The notes beneath the pieces were generated by a model. That model was given only the letters and a program-made list of their open reading frames with translations. It was not told the origin of the DNA and did no database searches. Positions 293 to 11,342 of a stretch of DNA of 11,342 bases are shown piece after piece. This DNA is from a virus (taxonomy: Duplodnaviria > Heunggongvirae > Uroviricota > Caudoviricetes), in IMG/VR virus record IMGVR_UViG_2778261353_000007, positions 1-11,342 of that record; one strand, 5' to 3'. The first letter of the stretch is position 1, and every line of letters begins with the position of its first letter. A program made the translations under genes and the position numbers.

Positions 293-387
293 GGAAGATC
301 GTCGTCTCCGGTGAGGCGGCTGGACTTCAAATCCAGTTGGGGCCGCCAGCGGTCCCGGGCAGGTTCGACTCCTGTGATCTTCCGCCA
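293..387 (+). tRNA. selC: tRNA-Sec (selenocysteine, anticodon UCA)
   Basis: 95-nt sequence GGAAGATCGTCGTCTCCGGTGAGGCGGCTGGACTTCAAATCCAGTTGGGGCCGCCAGCGGTCCCGGGCAGGTTCGACTCCTGTGATCTTCCGCCA matches the E. coli selC tRNA as I recall it: long variable arm, anticodon TCA at 327-329, encoded 3' CCA. The minus-strand ORFs overlapping it are spurious. Confidence 0.93.
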
Positions 388-549
388 AACCTCATCCAGC
401 CAGTTCCGAGACACTCCATAAAATCCTTTATATTCAATACGATGAATAATCAGCTTGTCCGTAATAGTCCGAGAGCATCTCCCTGAATCCGCGAAAAATA
501 TGTATAGTAATGTGTATAGATTTTTTATAAGTAGTATTCAGTTATACAC

Positions 550-1728
550 ATGGCTCTAACCGATATACAGATCAAACGAGCAAAACCACAAGACAAGCCA
601 TACACATTGAACGATGGACAAGGTCTGTCATTGCTTATCAATCCCGATGGCTCGAAAGGCTGGCGTTTCCGTTTCCGATTTGCAGGAAAAGCGCGGTTAA
701 TGTCATTTGGCAGCTACGATTTAGTAAGCCTCGCAGAAGCACGTGAGAAGCGTGATATCGCCCGTAAGCAGGTTGCTAATGGCATTGACCCGGTAGAGGA
801 ACGCAAAGCTTTAAGACTCGCCCAAAAGCTATCAACAGAAAATTCTTTCGAAGCAATATGTCGAGAATGGCATACCAACAAAGCTGACCGCTGGACTGTG
901 GCCTATCGAGAAGAAATTATTAAGACATTCGAGCAGGATGTCTTCCCGTTCATTGGTAAACGTCCTATCAGTGAAATCAAACCATTAGAACTGCTTGAAG
1001 TATTGCGACGAATAGAGAAACGAGGAGCACTAGAGAAGACCAGAAAAGTGCGCCAAAGATGCGGTGAGGTCTTTCGTTATGCAATCATAACTGGCCGAGC
1101 TGAATACAATCCAGCACCTGATTTAGCTATCGCTCTGGCCGTTCCTAAGCAAAAACACCACCCATTTTTATCTGCCGAAGAGTTGCCTTATTTTATTCAA
1201 GATCTTGAAGCGTATACCGGAAGCATCATCACTAAAAATGCGACAAAGATAGTCATGTTAACTGGCGTAAGAACTCAGGAAATGCGCTTTGCCACGTGGG
1301 ATGAAGTTGACCTTGAGAAAGGAATATGGGAGATTCCAGCTGAAAGGATGAAAATGCGCAGGCCTCATATTGTACCTCTATCTACTCAGGTGATTGCCCT
1401 TTTTAAACAGCTCAAGCCTATTAGCGGCCATTATCCCTACATTTTTATTGGAAGAAATAATCGTAGTAAACCGATCTCTAAAGAAAGTGTATCACAGGTT
1501 ATTGAATTACTAGGCTACAAAGGTCGCGCTACAGGTCACGGATTTAGACATACTATGTCAACCATTTTGCACGAAAAGGGATTTGACAGTGTATGGATTG
1601 AAATGCAATTAGCTCACTTAGATAAAAATACTATTCGAGGTACATATAACCATGCACAATATTTAGAGAAGAGAAAAGATATGATGCAATGGTATGCGGA
1701 CTTTTTATACAAATCATTGGAGCGGTAA
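550..1728 (+). CDS. int: Tyrosine site-specific recombinase, P4-type integrase
   Basis: 392-aa ORF directly downstream of a tRNA gene. N-terminus MALTDIQIKRAKPQDKPYTLNDGQGL is typical of P4-family integrase arm-binding domains. C-terminal catalytic signature is present: Arg in LTGVRTQE, HGFRHT box and Tyr in RGTYNHAQY. No obvious Shine-Dalgarno before the ATG. Confidence 0.9.
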   Translation: MALTDIQIKRAKPQDKPYTLNDGQGLSLLINPDGSKGWRFRFRFAGKARLMSFGSYDLVSLAEAREKRDIARKQVANGIDPVEERKALRLAQKLSTENSFEAICREWHTNKADRWTVAYREEIIKTFEQDVFPFIGKRPISEIKPLELLEVLRRIEKRGALEKTRKVRQRCGEVFRYAIITGRAEYNPAPDLAIALAVPKQKHHPFLSAEELPYFIQDLEAYTGSIITKNATKIVMLTGVRTQEMRFATWDEVDLEKGIWEIPAERMKMRRPHIVPLSTQVIALFKQLKPISGHYPYIFIGRNNRSKPISKESVSQVIELLGYKGRATGHGFRHTMSTILHEKGFDSVWIEMQLAHLDKNTIRGTYNHAQYLEKRKDMMQWYADFLYKSLER

Positions 1729-1744: not shown

Positions 1745-2386
1745 TTAATATATGGATGCTATTACCATTAAGACTTTAAAGAAAAACATGACGACAATTA
1801 ACCAGATAATTAAATACCCCCAAATACTACTGATATGATAGTTAATTCTACCTTTTAGCATCCTCCAAAAGCTAAAATTTTCAGGCGTATGGGAAATATA
1901 ATATCTGCTCTTTACTATTTTATGATATTCATAATCAACAGGGCTATGGTTGAAAGTGCATGTTGATTTTATTTTTTCATACTCATCGCGAAGATTATCT
2001 ATATTTTTATAATCTTCTTCAGTCATTTCATTTTTTAAGCTATTTTTGAATAGAGAAAGTTTCCTTTCATACTCATTAAGTAACTCAGCATTTCTAAAGA
2101 GAGCTTCAGATTTAGCTCCTGATGCAACTCCCCACTCAATAAGACTAATTATAATTAATAGCATACTTAAGATAATAGAAAATGCGGTTATTAATATATT
2201 GAGTTTAGGATTTATATCATTAATCCAAAAATATTGCATTAATGATAATATAATACTGGAAAGGCCAATTAAAGCGAGACTAATAGTTGAAAAGATCTCT
2301 CTGACCTTTAATCGACGGGATGAATTATATCTTGCACACGATGTTTCCCATGCAGCTTTACTTAGGCTATCCAAAAAATCTTTCAT
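1745..2386 (-). CDS. Hypothetical membrane protein with three predicted TM segments; candidate effector partner of the adjacent reverse transcriptase
   Basis: ORF track gives 1745..2482 (245 aa). I prefer the internal start MKDFLDSL at 2386 (213 aa) because GGAG lies 6 nt upstream (2393-2396) and the longer N-terminus runs into the GC-rich spacer. Hydrophobic stretches IFSTISLALIGLSSIILSLMQYF, LNILITAFSIILSMLLIIISLI and C-terminal ISSIWGYLIIWLIVVMFFFKVLMVIASIY; charged, probably helical region between TM2 and TM3. AT-rich like the RT gene. No family recognised. Confidence 0.65.
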   Translation of the reverse strand: MKDFLDSLSKAAWETSCARYNSSRRLKVREIFSTISLALIGLSSIILSLMQYFWINDINPKLNILITAFSIILSMLLIIISLIEWGVASGAKSEALFRNAELLNEYERKLSLFKNSLKNEMTEEDYKNIDNLRDEYEKIKSTCTFNHSPVDYEYHKIVKSRYYISHTPENFSFWRMLKGRINYHISSIWGYLIIWLIVVMFFFKVLMVIASIY

Positions 2387-2580
2387 TATAAACTCCATGA
2401 ATAGTATAAAGTGACGCAACGCCGGAGATATCAGTCCAATCCTCTTCACCAGCAGTTTCCCCCGATGAAGGTTTACTACCATTTTAGGTCAGGAGCACTT
2501 CTGCCCATCACGGCATTTCCGCATGGGGTACGGCACCTGCAAGGCAAGTGCCGTCGGCGTTGGTCAAGCTCAATATATCA

Positions 2581-3990
2581 TTATTTAGGATATACTTCAC
2601 CTTCATCTGCATGCATGCTAGCTAGATTTTTAGCTTTATATCTCTCATAACGCTCTTCAACCTGTTCTTTAGTTAACCTCTCACCTTCAGCAATCCTTCC
2701 GCGCCGGTGCAAGAATTCAGTTTTTTGTTTAACAGTTTTAATCTGGTCGTAATCTCGTATATAACCTCTATGTGGGCTATATTTCATTTCATAATAAGCA
2801 CGTGTTACCTTTTTCAATCCTTCAGGTGCACAATTATCAAAATCATCCAAGCGTTTAAACATTTCTCTTATTATAAAATCTATTTTATGCAGAAGAGAGT
2901 GGTCGGTAATATTTGAATAATAAGCCACCCATCCATATCTTTTTTTCTCACTAATAGCCCCTGTTAACTTATCATTTAACTCTTCCAGAAAAACATCTTT
3001 AAGATCATCAACGGTTAAATGTGTATACTTCTTTAAACGTTTATTTTTATTGTGAAGATAGTCACTAAACCTAGATGCGATTGATTTTATAAATGATTCT
3101 ACAGTCGAATCTCGCACTGTTATAACATTTGCATTAAAAACATATCCCAAAAAGCTAAAAGACTCATTAAGAAAACCTAAACGTGTCTTAGATGATGTTG
3201 GCGGATGAGTGTTTAATCCCCTATATTTAAGCCTACGCCGTAGTGAATGATAAGCTGAATTTACCTCGTCATAATTTCCATAAATTAGCACATCATCAAC
3301 ATATCTATAGTAAGCTACATCAAACTTTAGCATTTTATCATCAACACTTTGCAGATAAATTGCAGCTAAAATATTAGATATTGACAACCCTTGAGGAACT
3401 CCCTTTTCATTATCAAAAAAAAACTTCCTCATTTTTTTATTAACACTATCACTTGTTGTTGGTGTTAAAAGAGAACGAACTATGAGGTCCAACGCTCTTT
3501 TACAATGCACTCTTTTTGATAGAATCTTTTTAAGTCGATGTTTGTTTATATTGTCATAGAAACCTTCAATATCACAACTACAAACATAAATATCTTCAGG
3601 GGGCATATCTTTTAAATCATCCGAGATATTTCTAATATAAGTTGAAGCAATACTCTTAGGTACACAATCAGGGAAAATCTCACAAAGAAAAACATTGAGC
3701 TGTTTTAATACAATGCGATCTCTAATTGTTGGTATAGAAATTACCCTAGGACTTTTTCCTCGCCCTTTACTTTTTAATTTTTCTAAGTAAGGAGTAAATC
3801 TAAATGAACCGTCAAGACATTTTTCCGAAACTTTCTTTAATTCCTTTCTGGCTCTACTTGAATATTGCATGCCATTGATTCTGTCAATGCCTTTTGCTGC
3901 CGACTTACTAAATTTATCAGAATACACATCAAATAAAGATTTTGGGGAGAAGAGTTTTTTAAATAACGTTTCTTGTGCTCGTTCATCCAT
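2581..3990 (-). CDS. Reverse transcriptase (RNA-directed DNA polymerase), unclassified, probably defence-associated
   Basis: 469-aa ORF with the RT motif series: AAKGIDRINGMQY (motif 0/1-like), RVISIPTIRDRIVLKQL (motif 2), CDIEGFYDNI (motif A, catalytic Asp), GVPQGLSISNILAAIYL (motif B'), YRYVDDVLIYG (motif C, YxDD), FLGYVF (primer grip). About 180-aa charged C-terminal extension. SD-like AAGGTG 5 nt before the ATG. Very AT-rich relative to the P4 backbone. Confidence 0.9.
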   Translation of the reverse strand: MDERAQETLFKKLFSPKSLFDVYSDKFSKSAAKGIDRINGMQYSSRARKELKKVSEKCLDGSFRFTPYLEKLKSKGRGKSPRVISIPTIRDRIVLKQLNVFLCEIFPDCVPKSIASTYIRNISDDLKDMPPEDIYVCSCDIEGFYDNINKHRLKKILSKRVHCKRALDLIVRSLLTPTTSDSVNKKMRKFFFDNEKGVPQGLSISNILAAIYLQSVDDKMLKFDVAYYRYVDDVLIYGNYDEVNSAYHSLRRRLKYRGLNTHPPTSSKTRLGFLNESFSFLGYVFNANVITVRDSTVESFIKSIASRFSDYLHNKNKRLKKYTHLTVDDLKDVFLEELNDKLTGAISEKKRYGWVAYYSNITDHSLLHKIDFIIREMFKRLDDFDNCAPEGLKKVTRAYYEMKYSPHRGYIRDYDQIKTVKQKTEFLHRRGRIAEGERLTKEQVEERYERYKAKNLASMHADEGEVYPK

Positions 3991-4129
3991 TGCATCACCT
4001 TATATTACGTCACGACTATTCCGTCTGACCACTTAATATCATGAATTCATTGCGTTCTTATAGCAAAATTTAATAAAAACTGCATTAACCTTCACTATTG
4101 ATTGGTCGCATTAAATTCTTATGCGCGCA

Positions 4130-4148
4130 GTGCTTTCCCCGCCTCGCC
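4130..4148 (-). other. cos site: 19-nt P2/P4 cohesive-end sequence
   Basis: Minus strand reads GGCGAGGCGGGGAAAGCAC, which matches the P2/P4 cohesive-end sequence as I recall it. It lies downstream of psu, as in P4, and is flanked by GC-rich hairpins (4147-4167 and 4197-4218). Confidence 0.55.
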
Positions 4149-4250
4149 CGCCCGCTTTGCGGGGCGGTTTTAATGCAGTTGCACTGACACGCTCAGACCG
4201 CGCCGGGAATGGCGCGGTTTGCAGAAAATGAGGCAGGAAAACGCATGCAA

Positions 4251-4282
4251 AGCCATGCACCTTATCGATGCATGGCTTTTTT
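4251..4282. terminator. Rho-independent terminator-like hairpin downstream of psu (possibly bidirectional)
   Basis: 9-bp stem AGCCATGCA / TGCATGGCT with a 9-nt loop, followed by a T-run on the plus strand; A-rich tract on the other side. Sits between the psu stop (4313) and cos. Confidence 0.45.
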
Positions 4283-4312
4283 CAGTAAAAACGGGCGGAT
4301 TTTCGGGGGGTT

Positions 4313-4885
4313 TTACACAGACTGATGTGATGCCAGTTGCGCACTTTTACGCGAAAAAATCATATTCTGCGCAGGAGTGAATTTTTCACGGCTGTCATCC
4401 ACCGAAGCCGCGTCAGGCCTGAATCCGATGGTCGTTAAAATGTCGCTATCCTGTGCGGAATAATTAATTTTTTCCCCCTTCGCAAGCCAGGACAGAAGGG
4501 CTTCACGCAGGGCATCTGTGGCACGCTGTATGGCACAGTTTCGGGCAATGGCCGTCAGCTCACTGTAGCCCATCAGCTCCGGTGCCAGTGCGGCCGCCAG
4601 TGCTGTGCCGTGCTGCTGCATAAAATCATTCAGCCGGTCGCGGATGCTGATGTGCTGAACGGCTTCATGCGAACGAATATAACGACCGGCAGCCTGATTC
4701 ACCTGCCATTTTCTGACTTCGATAATATTGCGTAATTCGTCCAGGCGACTGACGTTTCTGCCTTCCCCGGACAGAAGCCGCAGATATTCCTGTTCGGCCG
4801 CAGCCAGCTCATTTTTGCGTTGCAGCCATGCTGCTTTGTTATTCTGACAGGTGTCAAAGGCCTGCTGTAAGGCTGTGCTTTCCAT
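4313..4885 (-). CDS. psu: Polarity suppression protein Psu (capsid decoration / Rho antagonist)
   Basis: 190-aa ORF, the size I recall for P4 Psu; last gene of a minus-strand sid-delta-psu operon, followed by terminator and cos exactly as in P4. Confidence 0.88.
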   Translation of the reverse strand: MESTALQQAFDTCQNNKAAWLQRKNELAAAEQEYLRLLSGEGRNVSRLDELRNIIEVRKWQVNQAAGRYIRSHEAVQHISIRDRLNDFMQQHGTALAAALAPELMGYSELTAIARNCAIQRATDALREALLSWLAKGEKINYSAQDSDILTTIGFRPDAASVDDSREKFTPAQNMIFSRKSAQLASHQSV

Positions 4886-4958
4886 CGTTATCTCTTTCTC
4901 ATCATGCTGAAGAATAAAAATACGGTGTGCGGCGACGGCCGGGGTTAACCGGCAGCCC

Positions 4959-5459
4959 TCATTCCAGACGCAGCGAATATGATTGTGTTTTTAACCGTAC
5001 TGGCGGCAGTTCCTGTTTTTCATGCAGGCGTTCTGCCAGTTCGTCCGGCGTGACCGGGCGGACAATGAAGCGGTTGATGGTCTGAAGCGTTTTAAACACC
5101 AGACCACAGCCCGGATCCGTGCACACATAAAAACGTTCGGTGACTTCCTGAGACAGACGCCGCGATGTTCTTGACAGTGCAAGGCCGTTACATCTCCGAC
5201 AACAATATCCGGTAACAAGCATTCTTTTCGGGCGTTTCATACTGCCGGAGGCAGAAGTCAGTGAATCGCGGTATCTCTGTTTGCCTGAAATGTATTCCAT
5301 TCCTGAATCTTTACTGTCAGAGAAAAAGCTTTCACTCGCTTCAAATGTCGCAGAGCAATAAATATTCCGGCACTGTGCAATCATTATCTTGGTGCCATCG
5401 TCCATGAAATGTGCGCGACGAGTGTGAGCAACATGTCCACACGACGGGCAGTAAATCAT
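4959..5459 (-). CDS. delta: Late gene transcriptional activator Delta (tandem Ogr-type zinc finger)
   Basis: 166-aa ORF with two Cys-rich zinc-finger units (CPSCGH...CRNIYC and CCRRCNG...CTDPGCG), matching a duplicated Ogr-like fold. Start overlaps the sid stop (ATGA), indicating translational coupling. Confidence 0.88.
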   Translation of the reverse strand: MIYCPSCGHVAHTRRAHFMDDGTKIMIAQCRNIYCSATFEASESFFSDSKDSGMEYISGKQRYRDSLTSASGSMKRPKRMLVTGYCCRRCNGLALSRTSRRLSQEVTERFYVCTDPGCGLVFKTLQTINRFIVRPVTPDELAERLHEKQELPPVRLKTQSYSLRLE

Positions 5460-6190
5460 GACAGCAGTCCTCTGGCCTTAAGCTCTGCACCCTGCTGGTC
5501 TATTTTGTCCTGCCACACCTTGCGCTGTGCCGGTGTGCCTGCCACCTCATAATCCATGTGCGGGAGTGTTGCCGCTGACAGTCCGGTCAGCCGGAGAACC
5601 GGCTCGCCGGTGAGGCTGATTTGCATCTGTTTAATTTTCTGTTCCAGCGATGATTTCACCTGCTGCATGACAGCCTTTTCCGGTGCGACGTAGCCCTGAT
5701 GGCCGGTGGTGTTGGCGAGCGGATTTTCCTGTACCAGAATGCTCAGATGCATTGCCCGGACAAGCGCCTCACAGGTTTCATTCAGGGCGTGTTCCAGCTC
5801 ATGCTCTGCATACAGACTCAGAAGGTGATGATGTGCCTTCCGGTAGGCGGTGGCCGTGCTGTCACACGCCCCTTTCAGGCGTTCGCGTTCAAAATTCAGC
5901 ACCACGGCCAGATTGTCATATTCCTGTACCAGCTCCCGGCGTGCCACGCGCTCAATGTGGCGCTGTTTCAGCTCGTCGCTCAGGACACCACCGGCTGCAC
6001 GAAAGGCCGTGCGCCAGTCGTCAGCGTCGTTTCCGTCGGCCTGCGCCAGCGCATTTTTTTCCTGCTCTGCCCGTTCAATGGCCGTGACGGTCTCATCCAT
6101 CAGACGGGCGTTCTCAAGATGGGCGGCTCTGGCCTTTTCCAGTTGTGCCAGCGCGGATTGCAGATATTCAGGGATGGTGTTGTCAGACAT
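5456..6190 (-). CDS. sid: Capsid size determination protein Sid (external scaffold)
   Basis: 244-aa ORF, the size I recall for P4 Sid; first gene of the late operon; GAGGAG Shine-Dalgarno upstream of the ATG; helical, Ala/Glu/Leu-rich composition. Confidence 0.9.
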   Translation of the reverse strand: MSDNTIPEYLQSALAQLEKARAAHLENARLMDETVTAIERAEQEKNALAQADGNDADDWRTAFRAAGGVLSDELKQRHIERVARRELVQEYDNLAVVLNFERERLKGACDSTATAYRKAHHHLLSLYAEHELEHALNETCEALVRAMHLSILVQENPLANTTGHQGYVAPEKAVMQQVKSSLEQKIKQMQISLTGEPVLRLTGLSAATLPHMDYEVAGTPAQRKVWQDKIDQQGAELKARGLLS

Positions 6191-6261
6191 TTTCGGCTCC
6201 TCGTCACTTCAGGTTGAGAAAATTGTGACGTACACCGGACAACAACACGACGCATTGCAGA

Positions 6262-6279
6262 TGTGCCAGCCCTGACACA
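6262..6279 (-). promoter_or_regulatory. TGT-N12-ACA dyad, candidate Delta/Ogr activator site of the sid late promoter (Psid)
   Basis: TGTGCCAGCCCTGACACA lies 72-89 bp upstream of the sid ATG, consistent with an activator site centred near -55 of a P2/P4-type late promoter. A second TGT-N12-ACA at 6224-6241 lies closer to the gene. Confidence 0.4.
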
Positions 6280-6358
6280 GGAGACTCATCCTCACACCGG
6301 CAAGCCAGGAAAAGGTCGCAGGAAAAACCGGCTTACTGTTTGTTTTTTTATATTTTAC

Positions 6359-6462
6359 TGTTCACCTCTGTTCACCATAAGAAAAAAGATAAGTAATACA
6401 GTAAGTTAAATGGTGAACAATCGCAGTAATGACTGTTCACCGTCTGTTCACCACTGTTCACC
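6359..6462. repeat. Iteron cluster: six copies of octamer TGTTCACC (five direct, one inverted), ori-like alpha-binding sites
   Basis: Octamers at 6359, 6369, 6434, 6445, 6455 (plus strand) and 6412-6419 (GGTGAACA, inverted). TGTTCACC is the alpha-protein binding iteron of P4 ori/crr as I recall; it lies about 4.8 kb from a second cluster after alpha. Confidence 0.6.
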
Positions 6463-6566
6463 CGTTGATGGGCTTTTTGTGCTGTTTATTACTGTTTGTT
6501 TTTATTAATTCGCCGGGAATGAATAAGAAAAAACGATTTGTATTTCACTATAAAAATTACGAATTG

Positions 6567-6596
6567 CTTTAAGTGGCTTTAAATGACTTTAAGTGG
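6567..6596. repeat. Three tandem 10-bp repeats CTTTAAGTGG / CTTTAAATGA / CTTTAAGTGG
   Basis: Direct tandem repeats with 10-bp (one helical turn) periodicity in the control region upstream of vis; possible protein-binding array. Confidence 0.35.
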
Positions 6597-6621
6597 AGAT
6601 GAACAAAAAACACACAAGCAT

Positions 6622-6639
6622 TGTAAGGCTGCCGGAACA
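6622..6639 (+). promoter_or_regulatory. TGT-N12-ACA dyad, candidate Delta/Ogr site of the rightward late promoter (PLL-like) driving vis
   Basis: TGTAAGGCTGCCGGAACA lies about 100-120 bp upstream of the vis ATG; same dyad class as the Psid site, in divergent orientation. Confidence 0.3.
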
Positions 6640-6741
6640 AATCCCCCCTGTTGCGTCTGCTGAAAATATTCACAAAATAAAGCGCTACCCGAAGCCGGAC
6701 GGACTTATCCGGTGCTGTATGGACATTAACGAGGTAGCCCG

Positions 6742-7008
6742 ATGCAAGCTGTTTTTTCTTCCCCGTCTCCCGCCCCTGTGACGCCACTGATGCCGCTGCC
6801 GGACATCACGCAGGAGCGTTTTTTACGTCTGCCGGAAGTGATGCACCTGTGCGGCCTGTCACGCTCGACCATCTATGAACTCATCCGTAAGGGGGAATTT
6901 CCGCCGCAGGTGAGTCTTGGCGGTAAAAATGTGGCCTGGCTGCACTCTGAAGTCACCGCATGGATGGCCGGCCGCATTGCCGGACGCAAACGGGGGTATG
7001 ACGCATGA
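6742..7008 (+). CDS. vis: AlpA/Vis-family small DNA-binding regulator (excisionase-like)
   Basis: 88-aa ORF with the AlpA-type helix-turn-helix core [27 protein letters not shown] and a conserved Trp-containing tail; GAGGT Shine-Dalgarno 7 nt upstream. Same size and position as P4 orf88/vis as I recall. Confidence 0.75.
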
Positions 7009-7604
7009 TGATGCCCGCTCTGCAAAAAGTCCCTTTTTCTGGCTTGCCTTTTTCCGGCATTTGCGGATATAGTTTTTCCGCTGTCGCAAAATCGGCAGCC
7101 GGGCGTGGAAACCCGAGCAATCTAACGGCGACATATGACGCGCCATGCGTCTTTTTTTGTGTCGCAATCAACGCCACAGAGCGCCAGATTATGGTGTGGT
7201 GTGTGGTCAGTCGAGCAGATGGCACTCCGTGCATCCTGCCCGCGTCCGCTCATTATGCCGCAGAGTCAATGGTAGCTCAGGCGGGGCAGCCTCCGGGCTG
7301 GCCGGTATCCGTTAGAGCCGGTATTTCCACCCCCGTCTGGGCTATCGCCATCGAGCGTGGAAACTCCGGCGATAGCGTAACCTGCTATCTAACGGAGGCT
7401 GCCATCATGGCTACAACCCTTACCCCTTCACACCCTGAATTTGTCTTTGTGTTTGCGGCTGTCCGTCGCGCAGACCGTCATCCCCGTATCTGCATGCTTC
7501 GCACCGTCGCCGGTGATGAACGCAGTGCCCGCCGTTCCCTTGTCCGTGACTATGTGCTCTCCCTTGCTGCCCGTCTGCCGGTGGTGGAGGTGTCCCGTGC
7601 GTAA
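7005..7604 (+). CDS. Questionable 199-codon ORF overlapping the early promoter and immunity RNA region
   Basis: ATG overlaps the vis stop (ATGA), but the frame runs straight through seqA, the candidate CI RNA and seqC, and has Ala/Arg/Pro-rich low-complexity composition. Possibly only an N-terminal kil-like portion is real, or none of it. Confidence 0.2.
7044..7073 (+). promoter_or_regulatory. Candidate early promoter (PLE-like): TTGCCT, 18-bp spacer, TATAGT
   Basis: -35-like hexamer at 7044-7049 and -10-like hexamer at 7068-7073, about 30 bp upstream of seqA. Match by eye only. Confidence 0.3.
7103..7129 (+). promoter_or_regulatory. seqA-like target of the immunity RNA
   Basis: GCGTGGAAACCCGAGCAATCTAACGGC; its ends (GTGGAAA ... 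ATCTAACGG) are complementary to CCGTTAGA ... TTTCCAC at 7309-7330. A near-repeat lies at 7355-7397. Confidence 0.4.
7271..7346 (+). ncRNA. Candidate CI-like immunity RNA containing seqB
   Basis: Contains seqB-like CCGTTAGAGCCGGTATTTCCAC (7309-7330), complementary to seqA and seqC. GGTAGC (7271-7276) can pair with GCTATC (7341-7346) as a closing helix, with internal hairpin CAGCC-TCCG-GGCTG. Boundaries approximate. Confidence 0.35.
7355..7397 (+). promoter_or_regulatory. seqC-like second target of the immunity RNA
   Basis: GCGTGGAAACTCCGGCGATAGCGTAACCTGCTATCTAACGGAG repeats the seqA end motifs (GTGGAAAC ... ATCTAACGG) downstream of seqB. Confidence 0.4.
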
Positions 7605-7884
7605 TAAAAAAGCCCCTCAGACCGTCTCAGCGCGTCATGACGCCCGTGAACACCTCAGCATTGAGGCTTACCATAAGCTCAACCGCGCCAGCGCCGTATC
7701 CCAGTTTGTTGGGGGTGATTTGATTCACCGTGAACTCTCCGGCCTGCATCAGCTCTACATTCCGCATATTTTCAGCTACCTGAATGAAGATATTGATTTT
7801 GTGCTGAATGAACTGAAAGCCAAAGGCCTGTGCCGCGATTTTCTCGCCCAGCAGAAAGACCGGGGAGACAGGACGCATGTTTGA
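7597..7884 (+). CDS. Small protein (95 aa), possible epsilon-like antirepressor
   Basis: In-frame GTG at 7597 is preceded by GGAGG at 6 nt; the ORF-track ATG at 7441 would lie inside the immunity RNA region. Stop overlaps the next start (ATGTTTGA). The epsilon assignment is by position and size only. Confidence 0.45.
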
Positions 7885-8332
7885 TTTTCCCCAGCCCGGT
7901 GAGATTTACCGTTCTGCCGGTTTTCCCGATGTGGCCGTGGTCGGCATTCTGGAAGACGGTATTCCGTGGGAAATGCCGTACCGCTGCCCGGACATTGTCT
8001 GGAACCCGTACCGCCGTAAATTCAGTATCCTTGTGCGTATCCTCGCTGACGGGCGCACCACAGACATCCCGCTGGGGCGTTTTCTGCGGGAATTTACCTG
8101 TGACCGTCCTGACCTGTTTAAACGCAGCCCCGTAAACCGGCATGCGGTACTGAAAGAAATGGCCGGAGACCCGGAATTACAGAAATGGCGGGAGAAATAT
8201 CTGGATATTTACCCGCAGGCCCCTGTTCCGGTCAGCCGGGCGACACCGGTGGCGCGGGAATGGCGGGAAATCCCCCGCACGGAGCCTGACCCGGAAATCA
8301 CACCGGATAACAGTTACCGCAATTATCTGTAA
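7877..8332 (+). CDS. Hypothetical protein, 151 aa (P4 orf151-like)
   Basis: ORF translationally coupled to the preceding gene, same strand as alpha, backbone-like GC content. Function unknown. Confidence 0.6.
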   Translation: MFDFPQPGEIYRSAGFPDVAVVGILEDGIPWEMPYRCPDIVWNPYRRKFSILVRILADGRTTDIPLGRFLREFTCDRPDLFKRSPVNRHAVLKEMAGDPELQKWREKYLDIYPQAPVPVSRATPVAREWREIPRTEPDPEITPDNSYRNYL

Positions 8333-8467
8333 TTAAAAAACGACACCCGAAAAATTAAATGTGCGTATTCGCGCAGGGATACGCACGTCTTCAGGAGACG
8401 CAGATATGCCTTATCAGTTAATGCAACCGGCACGGAATGCAGTCATCTGTCACAGGGAGGAAAGCAA

Positions 8468-8788
8468 ATGAAAACACCCTTACCGCCCGTCTTACGCGCA
8501 GCCCTTTACCGTCGTGCTGTCGCCTGTGCCTGGCTGACCGTGTGCGAACGTCAGCACCGCTACCCGCATCTCACCCTTGAATCACTGGAGGCGGCCATCG
8601 CCGCTGAGCTGGAAGGCTTTTATCTGCGCCAGCACGGTGAGGAAAAAGGGCGTCAGATAGCCTGTGCCCTGCTGGAAGATTTAATGGAATCCGGCCCCCT
8701 GAAGGCCGCGCCGTCGCTGTCCTTTCTCGGGCTGGTTGTGATGGATGAACTCTGTGCCCGTCACATAAAAGCGCCGGTACTGCACTGA
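8468..8788 (+). CDS. Hypothetical protein, 106 aa (P4 orf106-like)
   Basis: Strong GGGAGG Shine-Dalgarno upstream of the ATG; sits immediately upstream of alpha. Function unknown. Confidence 0.6.
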
Positions 8789-8802
8789 AGGAGAACAACA
8801 CC

Positions 8803-11145
8803 ATGAAAATGAACGTAACCGCCACCGTCAGCCATGCGCTCGGCCACTGGCCGCGTATTCTCCCGGCGCTGGGGATTCAGGTGCTGAAAAACCGTCATCA
8901 GCCCTGTCCGGTCTGTGGCGGGAGTGACCGCTTCCGTTTTGATGACAGGGAGGGGCGCGGCACCTGGTACTGCAATCAGTGTGGTGCCGGTGACGGCCTG
9001 AAACTGGTTGAAAAGGTGTTTGGTGTTTCCCCGTCCGATGCGGCCGCAAAGGTGGCTGCCGTGACCGGCAGCCTGCCCCCGGCTGACCCGGCAGTGACGG
9101 CTGCCGCCGGTGCTGAAACAGACGCTGCCCGGAAGAACGCAGCCGCACTGGCACAAACCCTGATGGCGAAAACCCGTCCCGGAACCGGTAACGCCTACCT
9201 GACCCGCAAGGGCTTTCCCGACCGGGAATGCCGGATGCTGACCGGCACACACAGAGCCGGTGGCGTGAGCTGGCGCGCCGGTGACCTTGTGGTGCCACTG
9301 TATGACGACAGCGGCGAACTGGTTAACCTTCAGTTAATCAGTGCTGACGGCCGTAAGCGCACCCTGAAAGGCGGACAGGTCAGGGGCACCTGTCACACCC
9401 TTGAAGGACAGAATCAGGCCGGAAAACGTCTGTGGATAGCGGAGGGATACGCGACCGCACTTACCGTGCATCACCTGACCGGTGAAACGGTGATGGTGGC
9501 GCTTTCTTCCGTGAACCTCCTTTCTCTGGCCAGCCTTGCCCGGCAGAAGCATCCGGCCTGTCAGATTGTCCTTGCCGCAGACCGTGACCTCAGCGGTGAC
9601 GGCCAGAAAAAAGCCGCCGCAGCCGCAGATGCGTGTGAAGGTGTTGTTGCCCTGCCGCCGGTCTTCGGTGACTGGAATGATGCCTTCACGCAGTACGGCG
9701 GGGAAGCCACCCGTAAGGCCATTTATGATGCCATCCGGCCACCGACTGAAAGCCCGTTCGACACCATGAGCGAAGCGGAGTTTTCCGCCATGAGTACCAG
9801 CGAAAAGGCCATGCGTATCTATGAGCATTACGGCGAGGCGCTCGCGGTCGATGCCAACGGCCAGCTTCTGTCCCGCTATGAAAATGGTGTCTGGAAGGTG
9901 CTGCCGCCACAGGACTTTGCCCGGGATGTGGCCGGGCTGTTTCAGCGTCTGCGCGCGCCGTTCTCCTCCGGGAAGGTGGCCTCCGTGGTGGACACCCTGA
10001 AGCTGATTATTCCGCAGCAGGAAGCCCCCTCCCGCCGCCTGATTGGCTTTCGTAACGGCGTGCTCGACACGCAGAACGGCACGTTCCACCCGCACAGTCC
10101 GTCACACTGGATGCGCACCCTGTGCGATGTGGATTTCACCCCGCCGGTGGAAGGGGAAACGCTGGAAAACCACGCCCCCGCGTTCTGGCGCTGGCTTGAC
10201 CGTGCCGCCGGTGGCCGTGCGGAAAAACGCGACGTGATTCTGGCCGCACTGTTTATGGTGCTGGCAAACCGCTACGACTGGCAGCTCTTTCTGGAGGTGA
10301 CCGGTCCCGGCGGCAGCGGCAAAAGTATCATGGCCGAAATCGCCACCCTGCTGGCCGGGGAGGATAACGCCACGTCGGCCACCATCGAGACGCTGGAATC
10401 CCCGCGTGAACGTGCCGCGTTAACTGGCTTCTCACTGATACGCCTGCCGGACCAGGAAAAATGGAGCGGCGACGGTGCCGGACTCAAGGCCATCACTGGC
10501 GGCGATGCGGTGTCCGTGGACCCGAAATACCGGGATGCGTACTCCACGCATATCCCGGCGGTGATTCTGGCCGTGAACAATAACCCGATGCGCTTCACCG
10601 ACCGCAGCGGCGGCGTGTCACGCCGGCGGGTGATTATTCACTTCCCGGAACAGATAGCCCCGCAGGAGCGCGACCCGCAGCTTAAGGACAAAATCACCCG
10701 CGAGCTGGCGGTCATTGTGCGTCACCTGATGCAGAAGTTCAGCGACCCGATGCTCGCCCGGTCACTGCTTCAGTCCCAGCAGAACTCAGACGAGGCACTG
10801 AACATCAAACGGGATGCCGACCCGACGTTTGATTTTATCGGCTATCTGGAAACCCTGCCGCAGACCAGCGGCATGTATATGGGGAACGCCAGTATCATCC
10901 CGCGTAATTACCGTAAATACCTCTATCACGCCTATCTGGCCTACATGGAGGCAAACGGCTACCGGAATGTACTCAGTCTGAAAATGTTCGGGCTGGGGCT
11001 GCCGGTGATGCTGAAGGAATACGGACTGAATTACGAGAAGCGCCATACCAAACAGGGGATACAGACCAACCTGACGCTGAAAGAGGAAAGCTACGGCGAC
11101 TGGCTGCCAAAATGTGACGACCCTGCGACAACCCGACCCTCATGA
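8803..11145 (+). CDS. alpha: Replication protein alpha: primase (zinc finger + TOPRIM) fused to helicase, with C-terminal origin-binding region
   Basis: 780-aa ORF. N-terminal zinc motif CPVCGGSDRFRFDD...YCNQCG; TOPRIM-like region around WIAEGYATALTV and AADRDLSGDGQKKA; Walker A GPGGSGKS. AGGAG Shine-Dalgarno upstream. Size and architecture match P4 alpha. Confidence 0.92.
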   Translation: MKMNVTATVSHALGHWPRILPALGIQVLKNRHQPCPVCGGSDRFRFDDREGRGTWYCNQCGAGDGLKLVEKVFGVSPSDAAAKVAAVTGSLPPADPAVTAAAGAETDAARKNAAALAQTLMAKTRPGTGNAYLTRKGFPDRECRMLTGTHRAGGVSWRAGDLVVPLYDDSGELVNLQLISADGRKRTLKGGQVRGTCHTLEGQNQAGKRLWIAEGYATALTVHHLTGETVMVALSSVNLLSLASLARQKHPACQIVLAADRDLSGDGQKKAAAAADACEGVVALPPVFGDWNDAFTQYGGEATRKAIYDAIRPPTESPFDTMSEAEFSAMSTSEKAMRIYEHYGEALAVDANGQLLSRYENGVWKVLPPQDFARDVAGLFQRLRAPFSSGKVASVVDTLKLIIPQQEAPSRRLIGFRNGVLDTQNGTFHPHSPSHWMRTLCDVDFTPPVEGETLENHAPAFWRWLDRAAGGRAEKRDVILAALFMVLANRYDWQLFLEVTGPGGSGKSIMAEIATLLAGEDNATSATIETLESPRERAALTGFSLIRLPDQEKWSGDGAGLKAITGGDAVSVDPKYRDAYSTHIPAVILAVNNNPMRFTDRSGGVSRRRVIIHFPEQIAPQERDPQLKDKITRELAVIVRHLMQKFSDPMLARSLLQSQQNSDEALNIKRDADPTFDFIGYLETLPQTSGMYMGNASIIPRNYRKYLYHAYLAYMEANGYRNVLSLKMFGLGLPVMLKEYGLNYEKRHTKQGIQTNLTLKEESYGDWLPKCDDPATTRPS

Positions 11146-11152
11146 CTCACCT

Positions 11153-11176
11153 GACCGGCATCTGCCGGTCTTTTTT
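11153..11176 (+). terminator. Rho-independent terminator of alpha
   Basis: GACCGG-CATCTG-CCGGTC hairpin immediately followed by TTTTTT, 8 nt after the alpha stop codon. Confidence 0.7.
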
Positions 11177-11194
11177 ATCCCTGAAATCCCCGAA

Positions 11195-11285
11195 GGTGAA
11201 CAATCCACTGTTCACCCTTCACCGTATATTCACCCGTTATCACACTGAAATTAAAAGAGAAAAACGAAAGGTGAACAGTGTGAAC
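11195..11285. repeat. Second iteron cluster (crr-like, cis replication region), probably truncated by the window end
   Basis: GGTGAACA at 11195 and 11270, TGTTCACC at 11209, and degenerate copies (CTTCACC, ATTCACC, GTGAACA) immediately downstream of alpha. Confidence 0.5.
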
Positions 11286-11342
11286 AATCAAATCAAAAAA
11301 AACTTTTTTTTCTCCCTGTGTGATTTCAGTACGGGGGATTAA

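Follow-up and report, generated by a model that had tools for sequence, protein, structure and literature searches.

A very probable P2/P4-type cos site between psu and a DRT10 defence cargo in a P4-like satellite at the tRNA-Sec gene of Escherichia coli

In the 11,342-nt stretch of DNA analysed here as a whole (the window), a reverse transcriptase (RT) gene next to the psu gene of a P4-like satellite is preceded by G+C-rich, hairpin-forming DNA, raising the question of whether this DNA belongs to the RT, as a noncoding RNA (ncRNA), or to the satellite, as its cohesive-end site (cos). Comparison with P4, P2, and related satellites indicates that positions 4123–4177 very probably represent a functional-type cos of a P4-like satellite that is inserted at tRNA-Sec, and that a conserved psu-cos spacer (4178–4312) adjoins it towards psu.

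The window was 100% identical to positions 47893–59234, reverse strand, of the E. coli VG12A2 chromosome (NZ_CP128592.1), and its positions 4149–11342 aligned with P4 as one uninterrupted block of 7,197 nt with 97.9% identity. A tRNA-Sec gene is located at 293–387, and its 3′ end carries attL (358–389, plus strand), a repeat whose partner lies just outside the window (L003 14613–14644); the two att repeats are 32 nt long and 91% identical, match exactly over their last 23 nt, and are 11,255 bp apart. The tRNA-Sec-specific tyrosine integrase (550–1728, plus strand) is 38% identical to P4 Int. Further genes include psu (4313–4885, minus strand; Pfam Psu 1.3e-88; 98.9% amino acid identity to P4), delta, encoding the activator of helper late genes (4959–5459, minus strand; 98.2%), sid, for capsid size determination (5456–6190, minus strand; 99.2%), epsilon, for helper derepression, as given by the annotation (7597–7884, plus strand; 98.9%), and the alpha primase-helicase gene (8803–11145, plus strand; Pfam primase, Toprim, and D5; 98.5%). 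Overall, int, psu, delta, sid, alpA, the epsilon/ash region, and alpha follow the P4 order without interruption and show 92–100% amino acid identity to P4, except for Int with its 38%. Rfam placed the P4 immunity CI RNA (C4 family) at 7265–7352 on the plus strand; an a1b1 target (7067–7119) and isrK (7080–7157, plus strand) were also found, which corresponds to the normal P4 immunity layout. P4-like 124-nt crr direct repeats follow alpha at L003 14190–14495 and begin inside the window at approximately position 11190. The predicted excised circle of 11,255 bp, as compared to 11,624 bp for P4, fits a small capsid (about 10–12 kb). Judged by its sequence, the element is a sibling of P4 in which both the integration module and the cargo differ; the int/att module of P4 aims at tRNA-Leu, whereas that of the window aims at tRNA-Sec. 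A related copy was observed in E. coli 1008S13 (NZ_CP147053.1 456859–475234; locus L132), which has the same int, DRT10, and cos at tRNA-Sec and a single deletion that fuses fragments of psu and alpha; by its gene content, this copy appears as a decayed element with the defence genes retained. Just outside attR, a rhuM pseudogene fragment was found (L003 14721–14882) and is present in the same place in L004–L006, the tRNA-Sec loci that reach it; this fragment could be a remnant of an earlier island at tRNA-Sec.

The P2/P4 cohesive-end sequence, GGCGAGGCGGGGAAAGCAC, occurs as a single exact copy in the whole window, at 4130–4148 on the minus strand; no match was found in 200 dinucleotide-preserving shuffles of the window, even with three mismatches allowed, and 0 were expected. 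The distance from this 19-mer is 165 bp to the psu stop codon and 140 bp to the start of the RT, confirming the position and both distances that a sequence-only reading of this DNA had given. Positions 1–19 of the P4 record and P2 cosL are identical to the 19-mer of the window, and the right end of P4 (11455–11624) is 98.8% identical to window positions 4149–4318, with an alignment that ends exactly at the 19-mer; this unique exact match, with the P4 right end abutting it, identifies 4130–4148 (minus strand) as cosN, the 19-nt cohesive end. An alignment of the window with end-joined P4, end-joined P2, and four sister satellites mapped the core common to P2 and P4 to 4123–4177 (a feature of no particular strand), where the 19-mer is bordered by TGCGCGC (7 nt) towards the cargo and by 29 nt towards psu, and which matches P4 at 54 and P2 at 53 of its 55 positions. 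The comparison with P2/P4 cos that the sequence-only reading had proposed as its check thus extends to the flanks as well as the 19-mer. The size of the aligned core equals that of the published P2/P4 core, stated as 55 bp in two articles that both cite Ziermann & Calendar 1990 (PMC9594776, PMC5694545). By analogy with P2 and P4, staggered cuts would fall at 4129/4130 on the plus strand and at 4148/4149 on the minus strand, giving 5′ overhangs. Within the interval previously noted (4100–4312), positions 4100–4122 are AT-rich, cargo-specific DNA outside cos.

The cos of P4 (NC_001609 / X51522) resembles that of the window in its identical 19-mer, in 54 of the 55 core positions, in 98.8% identity over the 170 bp that link cos to psu, in the same three hairpins, and in its place between psu and a non-essential region; it differs in the base just past the 19-mer, which is C in P4 but T in the window, as in P2, and in having gop-beta-cII across cos, where the window has DRT10. 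P2 (NC_001895) and other Peduoviridae share the 19-mer of the window, 53 of the 55 core positions, and the TGCGCGC 7-mer on the left-end side; in P2, however, the portal gene Q is reached from the left-end side, the old/tin hotspot lies beyond the right-end side, and one of the three hairpins (hairpin 2, see below) is absent. The P2-like phages YpM50, pro483, and ST147-VIM1phi7.1 have approximately 130–150 bp of right-end flank in common with the window, with 73–78% identity. Among 80 psu loci from IMG/VR (L051–L130, at approximately position 1926–1956), at least two types of cohesive end were observed, GGCGAGGCGGGGAAAGCAC (58 loci) and GGCGTGGCGGGGAGAGCAT, along with mixed forms, and the core bases adjoining the 19-mer shift together with the cohesive-end type; these types could mirror matching to different helper terminases.

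The border between satellite backbone and cargo falls at the edge of this core. Satellites at tRNA-Sec whose cargo is an AIPR protein, an AAA ATPase, a SIR2 protein, or a dCTP deaminase are near-identical to the window from psu to 4123 and unrelated to it from 4122 on; across five satellites with five different cargoes, the common sequence ends at 4123. In the IMG/VR psu loci, the 19-mer or a variant with at most three changes was found approximately 165 nt after psu in 73 of 80 loci, and five of the other seven end earlier; median identity to the window was 96% on the psu side and 26%, which is chance level, on the cargo side. The G+C content drops at the same point from approximately 50–59% in the backbone to approximately 30% in the cargo. 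Positions 3991–4122 (minus strand) represent an AT-rich RT leader that is cargo-specific and diverges wholly from other satellites at 4122/4123; this leader presumably holds the RT promoter, although a sigma-70 scan of 3850–4450 found no promoter-like site. The RT start codon (ATG at 3990) is preceded by a Shine-Dalgarno sequence, AAGGTGA. With psu (4313–4885) and the RT gene (2581–3990) flanking the 19-mer, the placement of cos between psu and the defence cargo, as first proposed from the sequence, was borne out.

Three hairpins were identified near the 19-mer. Hairpin 1 (4148–4167), a stem of six G-C pairs with a TTTT run after it on the plus strand, lies inside the cos core. Hairpin 2 (4194–4204 / 4211–4221; 10/11 complementary) and hairpin 3 (4249–4259 / 4269–4279; 11/11 complementary, with TGCAT boxes and a T-run to 4285, terminator-like) lie further into the psu-cos spacer of P4-like satellites, which, counted from the 19-mer, spans 4149–4312 and is 98.8% identical to P4, with a median of 96% identity over the IMG/VR psu loci. 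The hairpins that the sequence-only reading had described as flanking the 19-mer do exist, but on the psu side alone, and only the first is within the 55-bp core; no inverted repeat comparable to these three was found on the RT side of cos. Folded as single-stranded DNA, 4123–4312 was more stable than 200 of 200 shuffles (z = -3.8). Nevertheless, among 22 satellites and helpers both-sided change was seen in only 6 of 25 hairpin pairs (none in hairpin 1; hairpin 3 barely varies), suggesting that conservation is mainly of sequence rather than of pairing. In hairpin 1, the arm adjoining the 19-mer (AAGCGGGC) is invariant and the opposite arm varies without compensation; in hairpin 2, the inner GCGCC/GGCGC pairs are retained and the outer pairs are frequently broken in relatives; in hairpin 3, the sequence is near-invariant even where Psu identity is just 62–64%. 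Hairpin 1 would thus be part of the cut site, and hairpins 2 and 3, from their sequence conservation, represent a conserved flank outside the core with a putative role in packaging.

An alternative for hairpins 2 and 3 (4194–4285), which is compatible with the cos reading of the core and which we regard as a real if less favoured possibility, is that they are terminators or insulators rather than a packaging signal, and would end the sid-delta-psu transcript and block cargo transcripts running antisense into psu. Hairpin 3 has a perfect 11-bp stem with A6 before and T6 after it, the layout of a bidirectional terminator with the stronger T-run on the plus strand, and hairpin 1 also scored as terminator-like on the plus strand; the T-run of hairpin 3 is, however, broken in the psu sense. 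Sister satellites carry cargo genes in either orientation, so that a plus-strand stop ahead of psu would be useful, and P2 itself is without hairpin 2. Against this alternative, three blocks in the spacer, GTGCAT, TTGCATGCGTTTTC, and CTGCATTAA, remain unchanged in diverged satellites as well as in the P2-like YpM50, pro483, and ST147-VIM1phi7.1 (three genera), and invariance at the level of sequence is a better fit to recognition by a protein than to a stem; moreover, longer cos flanks have been reported to increase cosmid transduction at least 10^4-fold (PMC9594776). Boxes of ATGCA/TGCAT are enriched in the psu-cos spacer (4173, 4245, 4255, and 4268–4269), with five observed as compared to 0.55 expected, a count reached in 1 of 5,000 shuffles. 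On a speculative and rather unlikely reading, the packaging signal of satellites and helpers may reach well past the 55-bp core, with GTGCAT, TTGCATGCGTTTTC, and CTGCATTAA as candidate sites for the terminase small subunit (cosB-like) that would set helper-satellite pairing with P2-type vs. 186-type 19-mers. Hairpin 3 may be both a terminator and a piece of such an extended packaging signal. These TGCAT-containing blocks, which lie outside the 55-bp core and occur in satellites and some helpers alike, are the only loose end of the locus with some novelty. Small open reading frames over cos were rejected as genes; the one at 4219–4380 (plus strand) in the window and the ORFs annotated as "hypothetical" or "aI protein" in pro483 and SW9 have unconserved frames and overlap conserved non-coding blocks.

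Returning to the cos reading of the core, the element looks packaging-competent, as had been proposed from the sequence, with an intact P4 gene set, 11,255 bp between the att repeats, and a near-identical cos; by analogy with P4, a P2-like helper would likely package it. The substrate for packaging is a monomeric circle. Following P2/P4 biology, the integrase would excise the element, which would then replicate as an 11.3-kb circle; the gpM/gpP terminase of a P2-like helper would recognise the 55-bp core and cut the two strands 19 nt apart, and the linear element DNA would fill the small capsids imposed by Sid. The DRT10 cargo (RT, ncRNA, and SLATT) would form the left end of the virion DNA, right after the cohesive end, in the place of gop-beta-cII in P4, and would go with every particle. 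Capsids of the size set by Sid hold approximately 12 kb (PMC7552001, PMC9122126), and plasmids of 5–10 kb with P4 cos get packaged (PMC2231350). The earlier conclusion that the cargo would be packaged stands, but the reason given for it, its position relative to cos, does not; the cargo would be packaged because it is within the att-bounded circle that carries cos, whichever side of cos it occupies. A chimeric query (cargo joined to the P2 Q/P portal/terminase region) matched the VG12A2 chromosome in five places, the best of them the cargo; a resident P2-like prophage in VG12A2 is possible.

A second alternative, that cos is a relic in a cryptic and immobile island, which would make the cargo a de facto fixed defence locus of the chromosome, appears improbable. 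Many P4-like elements decay, as illustrated by 1008S13, where the same int, DRT10, and cos remain and psu-to-alpha is deleted, and the full element was found in just 4 of 5,426 complete E. coli genomes; in the window, however, all P4 core genes are full length and 92–100% identical to P4, cos differs from the working site of P4 at one of 55 positions, the att repeats are intact, and the element size suits a small capsid.

Several DRT and retron systems have an ncRNA upstream of the RT, and the G+C-rich DNA at approximately 4123–4312 lies upstream of the RT, stands out beside AT-rich cargo, and folds better than shuffles; the proposal that it gives rise to an ncRNA serving the RT as partner or template is nevertheless almost certainly wrong, since the same DNA is found after psu in P4 and in RT-less satellites, the cos 19-mer is absent within 3 kb of the RT in 38 of 38 non-satellite DRT10 loci from other genera, the cos-side hairpins show almost no compensatory change, the covarying structure of this cargo is located in the RT-SLATT spacer, and published DRT10 ncRNAs are upstream of SLATT (PMC12632851; bioRxiv 10.64898/2026.04.29.721553). 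Presence in RT-less satellites and absence from non-satellite DRT10 loci also indicate that cos follows psu rather than the RT, and the sequence-only reading, which had preferred cos over an RT-associated ncRNA for this DNA, was correct on that point. An alignment of the 160 nt preceding the RT gene in 22 loci had no invariant column, an alifold energy of 0, and no consensus structure; the 139 nt that separate the RT start from cos are no more stable when folded than shuffled sequences (z = -0.97); and an Rfam search of the whole window (E <= 1) found nothing in 1745–4312, with matches to tRNA-Sec, C4, a1b1 targets, and isrK. As the region upstream of the RT shows no conservation and the 38 non-satellite DRT10 loci have no cos, the G+C-rich hairpins are, on this comparative evidence, satellite backbone unrelated to the RT, and the predicted RT ncRNA lies 1.6 kb away, between RT and SLATT.

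By protein family and gene layout, the cargo is a DRT10 (UG17) system of subtype B, comprising an RT, a SLATT protein, and a predicted structured ncRNA. The UG17 reverse transcriptase (2581–3990, minus strand; PADLOC RT_UG17 4.4e-140; Pfam RVT_1) is identical to WP_000344414, and its catalytic YVDD (Y230-V231-D232-D233) is invariant in 17 homologues. The SLATT_5 effector (1745–2386, minus strand; Pfam SLATT_5 6.1e-31; PADLOC RTasSLATT 9.9e-36) has 213 amino acids from the ATG at 2386 in the PGAP coordinates; this ATG, with GGAG ahead of it and a 213-aa product as in RefSeq, is likely the start. The program-made ORF at 1745–2482 (minus strand; 245 aa) overstates SLATT by 32 codons that overlap the ncRNA. 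The RT-SLATT spacer (2387–2580; 194 bp) is the sole G+C-rich patch within the cargo and folds with a minimum free energy of -72.4 kcal/mol (z = -4.3). DRT10-B loci fetched from other genera show the same spacing in approximately 25 cases, and their spacers align with conserved blocks; compensatory change supports 27 of the 30 pairs of the consensus, and 88.8% of cells are paired as compared to 42–53% with the partner slid, values that 0 of 500 shuffles reached. From this fold and covariation, the DRT10 subtype-B ncRNA is predicted at about 2413–2565 (minus strand), and it is kept from Escherichia and Serratia to Burkholderiales and Pseudomonas. The layout agrees with published DRT10 systems, in which the ncRNA is upstream of SLATT and, in subtype B, the RT is followed by SLATT after a gap of approximately 200 bp (PMC12632851; bioRxiv 10.64898/2026.04.29.721553); the likeness to DRT10/UG17-B, with its RT, a SLATT_5 gene approximately 200 bp later, and a structured ncRNA ahead of SLATT, concerns the cargo and not cos. 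The nearest relatives of the RT outside E. coli are 66–67% identical (Mixta, Lelliottia, Serratia, and Rosenbergiella); together with the composition of 1745–4122 (approximately 30% G+C), this suggests that the cargo was imported from elsewhere.

This RT and SLATT pair has been described before. The RT-SLATT system of E. coli H120 is the founding example that opens the description of the P4 psu-int defence hotspot by Rousset et al. 2022 (PMC9122126), whose locus table lists WP_000344414 and WP_001352776 as "RVT_1 + SLATT_5", and the H120 locus has since been assigned to UG17-B (bioRxiv 10.64898/2026.04.29.721553). The H120 locus has the same RT protein as the window and differs in SLATT, of which VG12A2 has a close variant (WP_289796570), and otherwise in nothing of substance. 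The element is also similar to the retronphage phiR73, with which it was compared by description; both are P4-like, in the selenocysteine tRNA gene, with RT cargo, and phiR73 depends on P2 for its transfer. The cargo of phiR73 is retron Ec73 and that of the window is DRT10. Packaging of phiR73 by P2 is reportedly among the results obtained by Inouye, Sun, and their colleagues in 1991. A search of the tRNA-int region against a phage collection returned tRNA matches alone and no phiR73. According to the reference list of PMC6174562 and to PMC8628076, phiR73 is P4-like, occupies the selenocysteine tRNA gene, and has a reverse transcriptase system, and PMC8628076, citing Inouye 1991, states that a retron-bearing P4-like element requires P2 for transfer. 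The arrangement, the exact RT/SLATT pair, and the ncRNA position are all already published.

For annotation of this locus, we suggest the labels cos and psu-cos spacer for the G+C-rich hairpins, a DRT10 ncRNA feature within the RT-SLATT spacer, and position 2386 as the start of SLATT. The arrangement of cos beside the cargo opens no new question; it confirms at this locus a textbook layout, in which P4-like satellites keep a swappable defence slot adjoining cos, so that the genes in this slot would ride in satellite particles.
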